Source: a virus (taxonomy: Duplodnaviria; Caudoviricetes). Taken from it: DNA of 30,714 nucleotides. Shown here piece after piece: positions 2,146 to 23,291 of the stretch. Within the stretch, counting starts at the first letter, position 1, and the number at the start of each line of letters is the position of its first letter. Under the pieces are notes generated by a model that did not search any database, had not been told where the DNA came from, and saw only the letters and a list, made by a program, of their open reading frames with translations. The stretch is from the IMG/VR virus record IMGVR_UViG_3300005611_000139, positions 1 through 30,714 of that record, one strand, 5' to 3'. The translations under genes and the position numbers were made by a program.

Positions 2146-2336
2146 TGCCTAAATTTAAGATAATAGGAACAAAGAAAATAAACGGAAAAGAGCCGGGCGA
2201 AATAGTTGATCTAAAAGATTTAGACCAAATTATTACATTAACTAAAGCAGGCCATATTAAAGAATTAGATAAAAAAGATAAAGCTAAAAAAACTAAAAAA
2301 GCTTTAGATCAAATTAAAAAAGATGAGGTTAAATAA
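2145..2336 (+). CDS. Small basic hypothetical (virion module)
   Basis: TAATG coupling on both sides. Confidence 0.7.
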   Translation: MPKFKIIGTKKINGKEPGEIVDLKDLDQIITLTKAGHIKELDKKDKAKKTKKALDQIKKDEVK

Positions 2337-3061
2337 TGGCTAAATATGTTTTTACCGACGGTAAGTTATTTTTAGGCGGGTACGATTTAAGTTCGCATAC
2401 TAACGCCGTAACTTTAGACGTTACCGCAGATGAAGTAGAAGTTACAACTTTACAAAGCGGTGGTTTTAGAGAAAGATTAGGCGGTCTTAAAGATAGTAGT
2501 ATTTCTATAGACGGATTTTTTGAGGCGGGTACAGAAAAACCCGACGCTTTATTAGGGGCTAACGTAGGTAACGAAATTATATGCACAATAGTTCCGGACG
2601 CAGGTGCAGGTAATACCGCGTACTTTTTAAAGTCTAAATTATTTAGTTACTCAATACTTGGGGCTATAGGCGAAGTAGCGCCGTTTAGTTTATCTAAAGC
2701 TAATAGCACCGATAAAGTTGTAAGGGGTACTATTGATATAGACGGAAGTATTACCGCCACCGGTAATACTACAGGTAGACAATTAGGTGCCGTAGGATCC
2801 ACCGAAAGCATTTACGCCGCAATTCATTGCTACGGTGTAAGCGGTACAAGTACCCCTACTATTACGTTCGTATTAGAAAGCGATGATAACGCGGGCTTTA
2901 CTAGTGCTACTACTAGAGCTACCTTTACAGATATAACCGCTATAAGTAGCGAGATTAAAAAAGTAAGCGGGGCTATAACCGACGATTATTGGCGTTTATC
3001 TTATACCGTTAGCGGTACTACCCCTAGTTTTGATATACACGCTACTATTGGTATAGAATAA
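2336..3061 (+). CDS. Tail tube-like protein, long paralog with ~110-aa C-terminal extension
   Basis: N-terminal ~130 aa aligns by eye with 3650..4057 (MAKYVFTD..DLSSH..VTLDVTADEVE..RLGGLKD..ISID). Confidence 0.7.
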   Translation: MAKYVFTDGKLFLGGYDLSSHTNAVTLDVTADEVEVTTLQSGGFRERLGGLKDSSISIDGFFEAGTEKPDALLGANVGNEIICTIVPDAGAGNTAYFLKSKLFSYSILGAIGEVAPFSLSKANSTDKVVRGTIDIDGSITATGNTTGRQLGAVGSTESIYAAIHCYGVSGTSTPTITFVLESDDNAGFTSATTRATFTDITAISSEIKKVSGAITDDYWRLSYTVSGTTPSFDIHATIGIE

Positions 3062-3070
3062 AAAAAAATT

Positions 3071-3137
3071 AAAAAAACCCGACATTATTTGATCTTTTAG
3101 TATAAAATAGTCTTATAAATTACTTAGGGAGGTAATA
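3071..3137 (+). promoter_or_regulatory. Putative early promoter and shared leader of accessory cassette
   Basis: A-tract, CCGACA (3079), 18-nt spacer, TAAAAT (3103), then TTACTTAGGGAGGTAAT RBS leader (3120-3136). ACCCGACATTATTT is identical to 21157-21170. Confidence 0.65.
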
Positions 3138-3341
3138 ATGGACTATCTAAATACTAAAGAAAAAAAGTTAGTAAATTTTATAGTTAAAGAAACTAGTTTA
3201 CTAGCTAACTTAGATGAAATTAATACTAATACAATCTTAACCGCCGGTAACTTAGCTAACGTAAATATCGATAGCATAAGTACCGTTAAAGTTAGGGTTG
3301 CATTAATGCAAGTTAAAAAAGAACTATTAGGGGGTAAATAA
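3138..3341 (+). CDS. Hypothetical protein, accessory cassette gene 1
   Basis: Strong GGGAGG RBS; 67 aa. Confidence 0.8.
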   Translation: MDYLNTKEKKLVNFIVKETSLLANLDEINTNTILTAGNLANVNIDSISTVKVRVALMQVKKELLGGK

Positions 3342-3523
3342 TGAGCTTATTAGAAGACGCTAAAGCTTTAAAAGATCAAATAGGAGTAGTCGAAAGCTAC
3401 ATAGATAAAAATAATAAAATACTTTTAAAGTTAGCTAACGAAGTAGAAACTATGAAAATTACGTACGAGCAAATAAACGCTAGACGTTTAGACATAAAAG
3501 AAAATTATAAAAACCGTAACTAA
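3341..3523 (+). CDS. Hypothetical coiled-coil-like protein, accessory cassette gene 2
   Basis: TTAGGGGGTAA RBS, TAATG coupling; 60 aa. Confidence 0.8.
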   Translation: MSLLEDAKALKDQIGVVESYIDKNNKILLKLANEVETMKITYEQINARRLDIKENYKNRN

Positions 3524-3545
3524 TACTCCCTAAGTAAAAGTTACG
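3515..3545 (+). ncRNA. Candidate antisense (anti-RBS) hairpin in 3' UTR
   Basis: CGTAACT-AA-TAC-[TCCCTAA]-GTA-AA-AGTTACG. CTCCCTAAGTAA (3526-3537) is the exact reverse complement of TTACTTAGGGAG (3120-3131 and 21195-21206). Confidence 0.55.
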
Positions 3546-3552
3546 TACGTAT

Positions 3553-3584
3553 AAAAGCCGGGTTTAACCGCCCGGCTTTTTCTT
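3553..3584 (+). terminator. Rho-independent terminator (possibly bidirectional)
   Basis: AAAAGCCGGG-TTTAACCG-CCCGGCTTTTTCTT. Confidence 0.85.
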
Positions 3585-3624
3585 ATGTCATACTACTTAT
3601 AGATATAACTACCCGACTTAAAAT
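3585..3624 (+). promoter_or_regulatory. Putative late promoter ATGTCAT-N27-TAAAAT
   Basis: Same motif and spacing at 8496, 12711 and 29273. Lies right after a terminator and upstream of the tail tube gene. Confidence 0.65.
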
Positions 3625-3649
3625 TTAATTATTAAGTAAAGGAGTTAAA

Positions 3650-4057
3650 TTGGCAAAGTTTGTATTAACAGACGCTAGCGTAACAATTAACAGCGTTGAT
3701 CTAAGCGATCACGTTGCTAGTGTTACTTTAGATATTACCGCCGATGAAGTTGAGGAAACTGCGTTCGGCCAAACTTTTAAAAGTAGATTAGGGGGTCTTA
3801 AAGACGGTACCCTAAGTATTGATTTCCAACAGGACTTCGCAGCAAGCGAAGTAGACGCTACATTGTGGCCACTTTTAGGAACAGTAACTACTTTTGAAAT
3901 TAAGGCTACTAGCGACGCTGTATCATCAACTAACCCTAAATATAGTGGATCCGTATTGGTTAACCAACACCAACCGGTCGCTAATGGGGTAGGCGAGTTA
4001 GCAAGTTTTTCTGTAAGTTTTCCAACTTCAGGAACAATAACAAGAGCAACTTCTTAG
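3650..4057 (+). CDS. Major tail tube protein
   Basis: AAAGGAG RBS with TTG start; 135 aa; NPKYSGSVLV...GVGELASFSVSF..SG pattern; precedes the tail chaperone. Confidence 0.8.
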   Translation: MAKFVLTDASVTINSVDLSDHVASVTLDITADEVEETAFGQTFKSRLGGLKDGTLSIDFQQDFAASEVDATLWPLLGTVTTFEIKATSDAVSSTNPKYSGSVLVNQHQPVANGVGELASFSVSFPTSGTITRATS

Positions 4058-13935: not shown

Positions 13936-14006
13936 TTATTTATTTATAAGCTTTTAATGTCGTATAAAGCGAATATAATTACCCTAAGTTAAAAAAGGGG
14001 CTAAAT

Positions 14007-15487: not shown

Positions 15488-16260
15488 GTACAAGACGAGG
15501 AAGTAGTAATTGGTATTTAGAACATTGGGCAAATGCTTTAGGTAATACCGATGAATTAACAGTAATAAGATTTAACGGAAAAGGGCGGGCGCAAATTAAT
15601 AAGGCCGTATTACCCGCTTTTACATTATTAAATATGTGTTTAACGGAAGATAATTATATTACGCACCGTAATACTACGGGCGGTTATAACTTTCGTAAAA
15701 TAGCTAATAGTAATAGATATAGTTGCCACGCTTACGGTTTAGCCGTAGATATAAATTGGGACTTAAACCCGGTAACGCGCGACGGATCAACTAAAACTAA
15801 TTTTAAAGATAGTACTATTGCTAAAATTTTAGAGATTAAAACGCAAGACGGTTTACCGGTATTTAGGTGGGGCGGTAACTATAAAAGTTACAAAGACCCT
15901 ATGCACTTTGAAATATTTGTAACGCCGGAAGAATTAAATAAAGGTATAGTACGTAATAACTTTAACCAAACCGAATACGTTAAGTTAGGCCTAGCTAGTA
16001 AACCACTACGTAAAGGGGATAAAGGCGAGGGCGTTAAGTATATACAAAAATTACTTAATGAAGTTTTAGATCAACATTTAGTACCGGACGGCGACTTTGG
16101 TAGTTTAACGCAAGCCGCAGTTTTGGTTTTTCAAAAAAAAGCCGGGCTAATAGAGGACGGTATAGTAGGTTCTAATACCTACGCTAAATTAATGGAGTTT
16201 AGGTCTGCTAAAATAAAGGCGGAAAGGAATAGTTTAATTGGCAAATATCAAATCATCTAA
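15484..16260 (+). CDS. Endolysin: M15-family peptidase plus peptidoglycan-binding domain
   Basis: R..SCHAYGLAVDIN..WGG..DPMHFE; C-terminal LRKGDKGEGV..IQKLL..DGDFG..T..AV..FQ..GL..DGIVG. Confidence 0.9.
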   Translation: MSTRRGSSNWYLEHWANALGNTDELTVIRFNGKGRAQINKAVLPAFTLLNMCLTEDNYITHRNTTGGYNFRKIANSNRYSCHAYGLAVDINWDLNPVTRDGSTKTNFKDSTIAKILEIKTQDGLPVFRWGGNYKSYKDPMHFEIFVTPEELNKGIVRNNFNQTEYVKLGLASKPLRKGDKGEGVKYIQKLLNEVLDQHLVPDGDFGSLTQAAVLVFQKKAGLIEDGIVGSNTYAKLMEFRSAKIKAERNSLIGKYQII

Positions 16261-16468
16261 AAATTGGAAAGCCTATTGGGGCTTTATGTTATCTAAAGCT
16301 TTTCGTACCGGTTTACAAAGCGCTATATCTTTGTACTTAGCTAATAGCACCGGAATAATTAGTGCGGATATGTTAGAACTTTTAGCAGTAGCTTTTCTAT
16401 CTAGCTTTATTACAGTAATACAACACGCTTTAGAGCAATATAAACCTAAAGCGACTTGGGATAACTAA
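16238..16468 (+). CDS. Holin (r1t-like, two TM)
   Basis: KAFRTGLQSAI motif, two hydrophobic segments, directly after the lysin. Confidence 0.75.
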   Translation: MANIKSSKNWKAYWGFMLSKAFRTGLQSAISLYLANSTGIISADMLELLAVAFLSSFITVIQHALEQYKPKATWDN

Positions 16469-16496
16469 TTTTATAAGTTAAAATAAATAGATCAAA

Positions 16497-16527
16497 TTGT
16501 GTAATTACCCCCTAAGTAACTGCACAA
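16497..16527 (+). ncRNA. Candidate antisense (anti-RBS) hairpin in lysis-operon 3' UTR
   Basis: TTGTGTAATTAC-[CCCCTAA]-GTAACTGCACAA: 12-bp stem (one mismatch, one G-U); complementary to leaders at 3120, 3327, 16734 and 21195. Confidence 0.55.
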
Positions 16528-16529
16528 CC

Positions 16530-16589
16530 GAAAAAGCCGGGTAATATTTAAAAATAAATAAATATCTAAAAACCCGGCTTTTTTCTTTT
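16530..16589 (+). terminator. Rho-independent terminator with long AT-rich loop
   Basis: AAAAAGCCGGGT...ACCCGGCTTTTTTCTTTT; same stem sequence as the terminator at 3553. Confidence 0.75.
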
Positions 16590-16718
16590 ACAAACATAGG
16601 CCAAATTTACGTTTTGCGCCGTTTGGAATATAGGCCAAGCAGTACTTAGCCTACCCGTTAAAAAATAAAAAAAATTACGTGTCGTACCGAATAAGCTAGC
16701 AATTTTATTTTAAGTAGT

Positions 16719-16749
16719 TATAATTATTGGTAATTACTTAGGAGGTAAA
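16719..16749 (+). promoter_or_regulatory. Putative early -10 and shared RBS leader
   Basis: TATAAT at 16719, then TTACTTAGGAGGTAA (16734-16748) before TTG 16750. Confidence 0.6.
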
Positions 16750-17088
16750 TTGTTAAAATTATATAAACTAAACGACCCTAAAGATACGTTATTAATTAAA
16801 GATAATGTATATAGCGGGGTTTTAAATGATAACGGTAAGGTAACTCTAACCCACGTACTAGCTAGTTTCGGTTTAGTACAACTTTATAACGGGGCGGAAG
16901 TTGATCTAAACCAATTAGAGCTAGTAGATGATAAAACACCTAGCCTTAGTTTTAGAACGCAACCTACTAGCGAGCGAGGATCACGCGCCGCACACGACCC
17001 TTACTTAATTCGTAAAGACGTTTATAACGACGATTGCGTACATTGTAAAAAAATATTTGATTATTGCGGGAGGTTACACGATGTATAA
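16750..17088 (+). CDS. Hypothetical early protein (C-terminal CxxC/C)
   Basis: AGGAGG RBS; CVHC...YC. Confidence 0.75.
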   Translation: MLKLYKLNDPKDTLLIKDNVYSGVLNDNGKVTLTHVLASFGLVQLYNGAEVDLNQLELVDDKTPSLSFRTQPTSERGSRAAHDPYLIRKDVYNDDCVHCKKIFDYCGRLHDV

Positions 17089-18777: not shown

Positions 18778-19523
18778 CCGATAATGTAGAAATAAAATAT
18801 GATATACCGCCCTTTACCATAGTACCGCATTGGGTAGCAGAATTACTTAAACCTACCGAGTTAGCTACGTACGTAGTTTTAGGTAAATACGCAGATAATA
18901 AGACTAAAGAGTGTTGGCCTAGCTTAAATACTATAGCTAGAGATTTAGACAGATCTAAAACTGCTACTATAACCGCTATTAAGGGTTTAGAGGAAAAAGG
19001 CGTATTAAAAATAGAAAAACGTAAAAACGATAAAGGCGATTGGGATAGAAACCATTATACGCTTATAGTTAACGGGGGTAGTAAAGAAAACTTAACCACC
19101 CCTAGTAAAGAAAATAATACTACCCCTAGTAAAGAAAACTTAACTACGGGTAGTAAAGAAAACTTAACTCTAACTATACCCAATATAACTATACCCAATG
19201 AACTATATTTTGATACCTACGATAAAGCTAAACAAGATACTTATGTAGAAACTTTAAAAGCGTGTTTTAGTAAAGATAGACCTACTCGTACGGAATACGG
19301 CGCAATGGTTAATACGGCTAAAGAGTTATTTACGGCCGGTATAAAACACGATGAAATACCTACGTTAGTTAAAAATATGGTTATTACTTACGGCGAAAAA
19401 TATACGACGGTAAGTAGTATAAAAAAACATACCGAATTATTAAACGGCGCTAAAACTAAAAATAATAAAGATGTTAAAAAACTAGTAGATCAAAACCAAT
19501 TAGAAAGGTGGGCTAATGAATAG
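18774..19523 (+). CDS. Phage replication initiator (N-terminal HTH, lambda O-like organisation)
   Basis: FTIVPHW...YVVL..YADNKTKECWPSLNTIARDL.RS..T...AIK.LEEKG; internal iteron array. Confidence 0.85.
   Translation: MTDNVEIKYDIPPFTIVPHWVAELLKPTELATYVVLGKYADNKTKECWPSLNTIARDLDRSKTATITAIKGLEEKGVLKIEKRKNDKGDWDRNHYTLIVNGGSKENLTTPSKENNTTPSKENLTTGSKENLTLTIPNITIPNELYFDTYDKAKQDTYVETLKACFSKDRPTRTEYGAMVNTAKELFTAGIKHDEIPTLVKNMVITYGEKYTTVSSIKKHTELLNGAKTKNNKDVKKLVDQNQLERWANE
19079..19207. repeat. Iteron array/replication origin inside initiator gene
   Basis: TAGTAAAGAAAA starts at 19079, 19103, 19127 and 19151 (24-bp period), then TAACTATACCCAAT at 19171 and 19186. Confidence 0.85.
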
Positions 19524-20711: not shown

Positions 20712-21136
20712 TAGATTTAAACGAGCCCCACGTTATAGATATACTAAATAAAATTAATTTTAGGGGCGGTAACTTTATAAAAAGTGTAGATCCCTACGAA
20801 CATTACGACGCGGAAAACTTTAGTAACATTTTAGAGATTAAAGTACGTACGCAAGATTATGATAAGCATATTATAGAACGCTTTAAGTACGAGCGTAATA
20901 TTGAACATAGTTTAACTAGTAAAAGAAACTTTTTTTACGTAGCGGTAGCTTACCCTTATTTATACGCGTGGGATATAAATTACTTAGATAGCATAGGCTA
21001 CAACTATTTATGGAAAACTAAAAACTTACGTAAAACTACGCATTATGAAAATAATAATGAAATACCTAAAGTAGTAGGTTATTTAGAAAAGCCGTTTAGC
21101 CTATGTATAAATTTAGTAAATAGTAAGTTGATCTAA
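20708..21136 (+). CDS. PD-(D/E)xK nuclease-like protein
   Basis: EHYDA...LEIKVR...IIE..K pattern. Confidence 0.6.
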   Translation: MIDLNEPHVIDILNKINFRGGNFIKSVDPYEHYDAENFSNILEIKVRTQDYDKHIIERFKYERNIEHSLTSKRNFFYVAVAYPYLYAWDINYLDSIGYNYLWKTKNLRKTTHYENNNEIPKVVGYLEKPFSLCINLVNSKLI

Positions 21137-21150
21137 AAATAAATTTTTTT

Positions 21151-21213
21151 AAAAATACCCGACATTATTTTAAAAAGTATGCAATACTTGAGTATTACTT
21201 AGGGAGGTAATAA
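21151..21213 (+). promoter_or_regulatory. Putative early promoter and shared leader
   Basis: ACCCGACATTATTT (21157-21170) and TTACTTAGGGAGGTAATAA (21195-21213) are both identical to the 3077/3120 copies. Confidence 0.65.
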
Positions 21214-21552
21214 ATGGAAATAAAAGAAAAATTACAAAACGACTTAAACGACGCTAAAAAAGAATTAGCTAGTTTCAAAGAAAATAAAACTTGTTCTTAC
21301 GAGTTAGTAGAAAGCGAATACGATTATATCTGTACCGTATGCGACGAAACTATAAATGCAGGCGATAACGCTTACTGTATTGAATATATAGACGAAGTTT
21401 ACGTATGCGAAAATAATATGGAATATTACTTAATTCAAAAAGTAGGAAATATCGCTTTACGTTTAGAAATGTTAAAAGATATTAATACCGAAGTATCAGA
21501 TGAAACAAATAAAGAAGTAGAGGAATATTTTAAAAAATACGGTGGTAATTAA
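21214..21552 (+). CDS. Hypothetical acidic Cys-containing protein (stand-alone accessory gene)
   Basis: CTVC...YC...VC; has its own promoter and terminator. Confidence 0.8.
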   Translation: MEIKEKLQNDLNDAKKELASFKENKTCSYELVESEYDYICTVCDETINAGDNAYCIEYIDEVYVCENNMEYYLIQKVGNIALRLEMLKDINTEVSDETNKEVEEYFKKYGGN

Positions 21553-21591
21553 TCTAAGTTGCGCATAATAGCCTTTTATTAATTCTAAATT

Positions 21592-21617
21592 ACCCGGTAC
21601 AAGCTACCGGGTTTTTT
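21592..21617 (+). terminator. Rho-independent terminator
   Basis: ACCCGGTA-CAAGC-TACCGGGT-TTTTT. Confidence 0.85.
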
Positions 21618-22066: not shown

Positions 22067-22714
22067 ATGGTATGGCTTAACAGGGCTAGTTGTAATAATG
22101 TAGATACTAATTTATTTATTAACCCTAGTAGGCGTAAATATAGTGATCTAAATATTTGGAACGCTAATAAGATGTGCCGGGAGTGTCCGGTTAATATAGA
22201 TTGCCTTACCTATGCTTTAGATAACGACCTAGAATACGGCTTATTTAGTTTACCCGAACGGGTACGCCGCAGAATACGTAAAAAAGTTGATCTAAATAAA
22301 TATATGGTAGATACGTTTAAAACTATGGACGTAATAGACCCTACCTTTAATAAAGACGGTAAGTTAGTTAAGAAACGTTGCTTACGGTGTAATAGATACG
22401 TTAAGGGCTATAGCAAAGATAATAGTAATTGGGGTGGTTATAACCATATTTGTATTAGTTGCTATATATCCATTAAAGATAAAAAGCGCGTAGATAAACT
22501 ATTAGATAGAGATAAGGCAAGCCAATCTATGCCGATCTTTGATAGTTACGGTAGCTTAGAGAGTAAAAGATGTACTAAATGTTGGGTAAGGCAAGACGCT
22601 AATAGCTTTAGTAATAGGCCGGCGGGTATAGGCGGTAAAACTTCGTGGTGTAAAGGGTGTACTAGAGATAACTTAAAGAAGTGGCTAGATAAAAAGAAAA
22701 TAGATAATGAATAA
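22067..22714 (+). CDS. whiB: WhiB-family transcription regulator fused to two CxxC..CxxC zinc-finger-like domains
   Basis: W..RASC...D..LF...A.KMCRECPV..DCL.YAL...G..; then CLRC/CISC and CTKC/CKGC. Confidence 0.8.
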   Translation: MVWLNRASCNNVDTNLFINPSRRKYSDLNIWNANKMCRECPVNIDCLTYALDNDLEYGLFSLPERVRRRIRKKVDLNKYMVDTFKTMDVIDPTFNKDGKLVKKRCLRCNRYVKGYSKDNSNWGGYNHICISCYISIKDKKRVDKLLDRDKASQSMPIFDSYGSLESKRCTKCWVRQDANSFSNRPAGIGGKTSWCKGCTRDNLKKWLDKKKIDNE

Positions 22715-23045: not shown

Positions 23046-23291
23046 CTATATCTAAATAAGCCTACAAATAGGGCGTTTTAAGGGGGACAGGGGGCGTTTT
23101 TTTCTATACGCCACAGGGCGAACACCCCCCCCATTACCTTACTTTTTTTTTACCCAAATTTTAGGCGTTTTTTACTCTATAACTTTTTAAACGTTGTTAT
23201 ACGAGGGGTACTATATGTAGTGGTATGTTAAATTAGAGCGGTTTTACGTAAAGGAGTACCCCTAGCGTAAAATACGACTATAATATTTTTT
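23046..23291. other. Candidate cos/packaging region
   Basis: Long gap after HNH with G-runs and C-runs, GGCGTTTT three times (23072, 23093, 23164) and a 9-bp inverted repeat (23204/23255). Position inferred from HK97-like phages. Confidence 0.45.

Follow-up and report, generated by a model that had tools for sequence, protein, structure and literature searches.

A hairpin-terminator unit of a probable marine actinobacteriophage as a candidate small RNA paired with tagged early-gene leaders

CopA and RNAI are cis-encoded, fully complementary antisense RNAs. Two described RNAs come nearer to the locus considered here, namely c4 RNA of P1 and P7, a phage antisense RNA whose relative-specific differences give heteroimmunity (PMC12197685 and PMC8198154, both in excerpt), and the 6C sRNA of Actinobacteria, whose C-rich loops bind several mRNAs without the help of a chaperone (PMC6486639, in excerpt). 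Known phage sRNAs mostly act upon one overlapping gene or upon host mRNAs, according to the excerpted text of PMC12197685.

The DNA analysed here, referred to as the window, is a stretch of 30,714 nucleotides (IMG/VR record IMGVR_UViG_3300005611_000139) that represents a circular 30.6-kb phage genome with a 77-nt end repeat. All of its recognisable genes lie on the + strand and encode head, tail and lysis functions, a replication initiator and a WhiB protein (Pfam/PHROG). The host is likely Ca. Actinomarina, a group of tiny marine actinobacteria, because a phage contig from a Ca. Actinomarina single-cell genome encodes a tail protein with 77% identity to that of the window, a contig described in the excerpted source as 29 kb in length, with 35.5% GC and a double-length WhiB (PMC7771536). 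The WhiB of the window (22067-22714) is a fusion whose C-terminal part resembles the Lar-like family (PHROG 5558, E 8e-7), and the replication initiator gene carries three tandem 24-nt repeats (19079-19162) that are likely origin iterons. A conserved inverted-repeat segment of the AGGCC..GGCCT type (16590-16665 and 23054-23175), placed between terminator and early promoter and, in L027 and L049, upstream of tail cassettes, is a possible DNA site or origin. The motif TGTC(A/G)TA (3585-3600 and 13955-13980), which in relatives recurs 5' of both the second tail gene and the exonuclease-lysis operon, is a candidate late or WhiB-dependent promoter element.

The subject of this article is a hairpin with a C-rich loop that precedes an intrinsic terminator and is present twice in the window, as module H1 behind the lysis operon and as module H2 in the tail region (Table 1). 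It is best read as a variant of c4- and 6C-like antisense regulation that belongs to no Rfam family; Rfam covariance models gave no match at E<=5 in the window and none at the gathering score in six loci of relatives. As with c4, a structured phage RNA would pair through its loops near the ribosome-binding site of the phage's own mRNA, which is supported here by predicted duplexes and co-variation. Whereas c4 belongs to a temperate phage that has a protein repressor, and acts there on a single antirepressor operon, the present element combines a hairpin and terminator in one unit and faces several dispersed, tagged leaders; an antirepressor operon in a temperate phage was not found as its target, and the ten records searched, some of them fragments, contain neither integrase nor repressor (no tyrosine integrase, resolvase or HTH_3 protein in any). 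With 6C, as excerpted, it shares the C-rich loop, the plurality of targets and the host phylum, but 6C is chromosomal and has host targets, whereas here the seed passes from the C-run into a co-varying, phage-specific tag. The likeness to CopA/CopT, ColE1 RNAI/RNAII and hok/Sok lies in a predicted loop-loop start with YUNR in the target loop. The analogy with CopA and RNAI drawn in a preliminary description of this DNA thus holds in so far as YUNR in the interacting loop fits loop-loop initiation; full complementarity from the opposite strand was not found, and in being encoded elsewhere, imperfectly paired and directed at several targets, the element is nearer to c4 and 6C. These last three properties, judged on predicted pairing, are those of trans-encoded sRNAs. 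The terminator is clear; promoter-like sites, recognised by pattern only, stand at 7 of the 12 loci on the + strand and at 17 of the 18 on the - strand. Hairpin and targets lie 0.2-17 kb apart on one strand, with mismatches in their pairing. No description of such a system was found in the literature searched, most subscription papers lying outside its reach.

The coordinates that the preliminary description had assigned to the hairpins and terminators of both modules, and to their pairing, were all verified, with two corrections to the folds. The H1 hairpin is real, but its stem, given as 12 bp, consists of 11 pairs and one A.C mismatch; the second module at 3515-3584 is real and of like design, but its predicted loop is the 5-nt CCCUA rather than UCCCUAA. 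Hairpin and terminator together have fold z-scores of -4.6 in module 1 and -5.1 in module 2.

Table 1. Positions of the two hairpin modules, their predicted promoters and their target leaders in the window.
Feature	Position	Strand	Basis or remark
Holin gene, last of the lysis operon	16238..16468	+	PHROG 443, E 0.003; Pfam Phage_r1t_holin, E 3e-4, under the curated cut-off
H1 promoter, predicted, TTGGGA-17-TAAAAT	16456..16484	+	Putative; -35 overlaps the holin Trp codon
H1 anti-leader hairpin, loop CCCCUAA	16497..16527	+	Seed is loop and 3' arm
H1 intrinsic terminator	16530..16585	+	Fold; long internal A/U hairpin; A-tract 5', T-tract 3'; conserved in relatives
H2 anti-leader hairpin, 3' end of the tail cassette	3515..3545	+	Fold; variant forms in relatives
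H2 intrinsic terminator	3553..3584	+	Linker ACGTACGTATA connects H2 and terminator
Early-type promoter, predicted, CTAGCA-17-TATAAT	16696..16724	+	Putative, from reading of the sequence; TATAAT-like -10 here in relatives
Target leader, first gene of the non-structural operon	16734..16752	+	14/15 pairs with H1
First target gene, 112 aa	16750..17088	+	Predicted SH3/KOW-like N-terminal barrel; conserved CxxC..CGxxH tail
Early-type promoter of the tail-region accessory cassette, CCGACA-18-TAAAAT	3079..3108	+	Predicted; repeat D17 with 21128-21170
Target leader of cassette gene 3138-3341	3120..3140	+	Weak hairpin fold, SD in loop and 3' arm
Target SD of second cassette gene 3341-3523	3327..3343	+	Loop match only; 11/11 pairs with H1
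Early-type promoter, third accessory cassette	21159..21188	+	Putative, from reading of the sequence; repeat D17
Target leader of gene 21214-21552	21195..21216	+	Cassette without anti-leader hairpin

The genes behind the target leaders had been taken for host-takeover genes, a designation that was not borne out, the four target proteins (60-112 aa) having no match in Pfam or PHROG. For the first of them no match was found at E<=0.001 in the ESM Atlas, among PDB sequences or with Foldseek; it has two homologs only, and its fold model reached a pLDDT of 67 (36 for a single-sequence model). The leaders have promoter sequence in common (repeat D17), and therefore part of their likeness is due to common descent. 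The tail cassette is flanked by two paralogous major-tail-like genes (2336-3061 and 3650-4057). The regions 3062-3649 and 21137-21616 are insertion hot spots for promoter-leader-gene cassettes, the content of which varies in nearly every relative; empty alleles occur, and genes swap sites. The cassette with the leader at 21195 is missing from several relatives and from one variant contig.

Complementarity between the H1 core (16504-16519) and its targets is as the preliminary description had it: 16 pairs with one bulged A are formed with each of the leaders at 3120 and 21195, and the matches at 16734 and 3327 were likewise confirmed. By duplex energy the four targets occupy ranks 1-4 among 53 predicted leaders, at -21.9 to -17.8 kcal/mol, against -12.2 for the next leader and a median of -5.0. 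H1 and H2 are the only intergenic + strand sites of the window that are complementary to at least two GG-containing leaders over at least 9 nt (4 of 55 leaders matched; P ~1e-4 by shuffling), GG being required for this result; without that requirement 12 genome stretches match at least three leaders. One look-alike, at 13979-13990, was rejected for its lack of conservation as an anti-leader site, and in a partial Actinomarina genome the anti-leader seed has a single occurrence, which is not above control. The bare palindrome TTAC-N6-9-GTAA is barely enriched (16 occurrences vs 9.6 expected, a number reached in 3 of 100 shuffles), and the information therefore sits in the asymmetric core. This core reaches 5' beyond the pairing of the host 16S tail (GAUCACCUCCUUUCU), its 5' tag not being complementary to 16S, while the self-complementary arms supply half of the 16 pairs of H1. 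When the full predicted RNA was folded against leaders from their predicted 5' ends, the three promoter-proximal leaders had a net binding near -11 kcal/mol. When a fixed window of 50 nt was taken over 54 starts, the leaders of 21214 and 16750 came out ahead in net binding and 3341 was fourth; 3138 was seventh at -5.6, behind two genes outside the list of targets. Loop-loop initiation fits these leaders: 11 of 12 first leaders carry, directly 5' of their SD, the YUNR motif described in PMC6562991 (excerpt), and the motif is present in 8 of 12 hairpins.

The firmest evidence comes from relatives of the window's clade. The post-holin hairpin is found in 22 of 24 endolysin loci, the remaining two contigs stopping short of its position. 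Between types the outer stems are wholly different, yet they fold in 12 of 12 loci (z -1.9 to -5.6), in keeping with the earlier proposal that the fold is kept although the stems change. The loop was found to co-vary with the leader, which had been put forward as the check to be made: there are five seed types (TTACTTAGG, ATACTTGG, TAGCTTAGG, TTACTAGG and GTACTTGG), in each of which the leader that follows is matched by the loop together with the 3' arm. Over 12 loci, the rows of which are related, the longest perfect pairing averaged 10.3 nt for cognate pairs vs 7.1 nt for permuted ones, a value reached in none of 100,000 permutations. Among the five seed types the cognate combination tops every row and column and forms the single best of 120 possible assignments. 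On the exonuclease tree the five seed states require at least four independent hairpin-leader changes, and the L018 type is nested inside a supported clade of a different type; the endolysin tree is without resolution. Loop C-to-T changes in G001 and L034 retain pairing as G.U, and in L008, from which the first leader is deleted, the SD of the next gene pairs over 10 nt with the 5' arm and loop. In G019 (L150:11116), the SD of the second early gene matches the 5' arm of its own hairpin over 8 nt, a possible second register that is not general in other types; clear co-variation between second-gene leaders and the hairpin 5' arm was not found. RNAalifold, applied to sequence alignments of H1, H2 and the sister-clade unit described below, returned terminators only and no consensus hairpin, and for the distant H2 hairpins of G012, G018, L070, L096, L098 and L100 no clear cognate leader was found in the DNA examined. 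Cassettes and promoter-leader units are visibly shuffled between relatives, and a hairpin could recombine with its nearest leader as a single block. The feature is real and selected, and the natural compensatory evidence for it is unusually clear.

Whether the RNA acts in trans can be judged from leaders far from H1. H1 tracks the tail-cassette leader 12-14 kb away, being the best match in four of four seed types (1 of 24 arrangements), and the corresponding figure across six genomes is 4 of 720, as the trans action originally proposed would have it. H1 and the tail-cassette leader form 15 of 15 pairs in G009; H1 of G002 (12 nt) suits the cassette better than does the genome's own H2, which mismatches; and in G004, where H2 is lost, H1 matches the unusual leader end, GCGT. 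A partial action in cis is possible for H2, because this hairpin is tied to the cassette: H2 and its terminator come and go with it, both are absent where the tail genes are 61-64 nt apart, and the H2 loop is degenerate where the tail cassette is empty. A general explanation in cis, by which H2, standing last on the cassette transcript or on the late head transcript, folds back onto its own leaders, H1 reaches the 16734 leader only via read-through, and early-type genes are kept silent on long late mRNAs, is rather improbable. The joint movement of H2 and terminator with the cassette speaks for it, as do the lack of a predicted terminator from the first tail gene to the cassette and the position of each hairpin near one target, but it does not accommodate leaders that H1 follows over 12-14 kb, a transcript of leader 21195 that has no hairpin, the strong terminator downstream of H1 or the opposite-strand unit of a sister clade. 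For H2, such folding back may go alongside parallel action in trans.

This sister clade came to light in two holin scans, which gave 160 loci in 66 clusters that were sorted by eye. Another gene or coding-like sequence follows the holin in 37 of the 66 clusters, and two are incomplete; the remaining 27 clusters are informative, in that the holin is followed by a terminator and the early operon, and every one of them has an anti-leader hairpin next to that terminator. It stands on the + strand before the terminator in 10 clusters (37 loci) and on the - strand after the terminator in 17 clusters (28 loci). The - strand unit, of about 65-80 nt, has the order extended -10, hairpin, often a TACGTA linker, and terminator, and is divergent from the early promoter (e.g., L214:1725-1850 and 16 other clusters). 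TGnTAnnnT is present in 17 of 18 - strand loci vs 1.5 expected, the sequences being related, and the TACGTA linker is common to this unit and H2. The - strand is not known to bear a gene at this place, and at the one locus checked it has only ORFs of 20-34 codons. The loops track the leaders, CACUCC going with GGAGTG, and AUACCC with GGGTAT; GGAGTG occurs in three leaders per record in six records tested. The hairpins of this clade fold weakly (z -1.3 to +1.0), GGAGTG-type pairing is short (5-9 nt), the loop CACUCC resembles the plain 16S tail, and 3 of 18 adjacent leaders deviate (GGAGTT). We infer that the sister-clade hairpin is a homolog of H1 through inversion. A promoter-hairpin-terminator unit on the opposite strand that co-varies with the leaders points to a stand-alone, trans-acting sRNA.

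The same observations bear on the origin of the RNA. Its description as a late 3' UTR was not borne out as a general account, given the sister unit on the opposite strand and a promoter-like TTG-17/18-TAnnnT 6-12 nt upstream of the hairpin in 7 of 12 loci (pattern match). A late 3' UTR is possible, because both modules of the window terminate probably late operons; no less probable is a discrete RNA with a host-type promoter, because of these promoter-like sites and because the sister-clade unit lies behind an extended -10 of its own. No transcript of the unit was seen among assembled metatranscriptome contigs; one run contained 8% of the words, in contigs from relatives, and neither module fell within the DNA covered.

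The hairpin-terminator unit is thus probably a small RNA, one that would pair in trans with tagged early-gene leaders and block their translation. Antisense pairing to SD leaders, the core of the preliminary description, is supported by sequence complementarity, predicted duplexes and co-variation. Hairpin and terminator would yield a small RNA of a predicted 70-95 nt, which may have a host-type promoter to itself or may arise as the 3' end of lysis- and head-operon transcripts. The C-rich loop is predicted to be open and may nucleate loop-loop pairing at the YUNR turn of the leader, from which the duplex would extend through weak stems to cover the SD, needing no chaperone, as for 6C RNA. Its targets would be leaders of genes downstream of predicted early promoters, which are marked at the ribosome-binding site by a phage-specific tag, and accumulation of a stable RNA would then place a delayed brake on the first early-operon gene and on the accessory cassettes. 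Such delayed feedback by an RNA from a host-type promoter is suggested because promoter-like sites precede the hairpins.

That the repeated motif is instead a DNA operator, TTAC-N-GTAA, recognised near early promoters by a phage- or host-encoded protein irrespective of orientation, is very unlikely. In its favour, the sites follow directly on promoters, the two clades carry the copy in opposite orientations, reversed in one and sense in the other, and the phage encodes WhiB; against it, the spacer is both 7 and 8 within one genome, the palindrome is gone from the L018 and G004 leaders, sense copies are always on an SD, no HTH_3 repressor was found in 10 records, and promoter, hairpin, linker and terminator flip orientation together. 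There is equally little to commend a real RNA that serves as a decoy titrating a hairpin-reading protein or as an adaptor that opens the leader hairpin to aid translation: the UAC/GUA-type closure is common to leaders and hairpins and the leader folds hide part of the SD, but a decoy would be expected to carry the site in sense, while the copy is antisense, and the predicted duplexes span the whole SD. Least credible of all are non-functional inverted leader copies made by template switching or gene conversion, since the copy, for all the shuffling of cassettes and promoter-leader units between relatives, is always in a hairpin loop just before a terminator (27 of 27 informative clusters), with stems that change.

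A pattern of related design may exist in cluster K mycobacteriophages. SAS are unexplained SD-containing repeats before non-structural genes, with one reversed copy in four K1 genomes (Pope et al., PMC3203893, in excerpt). In Anaya the reversed SAS forms the loop of a long + strand hairpin (L159:31851-31901), at which Rfam gave sub-threshold matches only; in Adephagia its place is the gap that separates gene 92 from gene 93 (L172, 58685-58693), in which late transcription of this phage starts (PMC11373665, in excerpt). The K1 hairpin is part of a conserved multi-hairpin region, present in 150 records, behind a SigA-like promoter, and the excerpted text of PMC12699233 does not mention a reversed SAS. 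Perfect anti-SAS loops were found in 5 of 12 aligned sequences, those of K3 and K6 being degenerate or absent; the prediction of changed SAS from K6 loops failed, and 7 of 10 cluster K genomes tested have no reversed core and retain 12-19 forward cores. The element described here thus resembles SAS in having an SD-containing repeat before non-structural genes and, in K1, a reversed copy in a hairpin loop, but the two have no likeness in sequence (the four target leaders do not conform to the 13-bp SAS consensus GGGATAGGAGCCC), and co-variation of loop and leader was not seen in cluster K. The link to SAS is accordingly a lead and not support; it makes a question that has been open since 2011 testable in Mycobacterium smegmatis with cultured phages.

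A more far-reaching proposal, which we regard as speculative and on the whole doubtful, is RNA-only immunity, by which the small RNA would replace a CI protein and shut off the leading early gene of any superinfecting relative whose tag is identical. Tags would then diverge into incompatibility groups. At least in subcluster K1, the SAS would find their explanation in this principle too, and phages would be seen to have a widespread means, so far overlooked, of addressing a class of genes. The sister-clade RNA appears to run divergently from the early promoter, at the position expected of a repressor gene, and fast paired divergence of close relatives would be expected under heteroimmunity, by analogy with c4 of P1 and P7; paired divergence through drift with compensation is a possible alternative. 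If the reading of the unit as a trans-acting small RNA is true, a phage could use a private tag to time or restrict, without protein, a class of genes in its own genome. The natural compensatory variants, with their five to seven seed types, provide swap controls and possibly orthogonal regulators for Actinobacteria.
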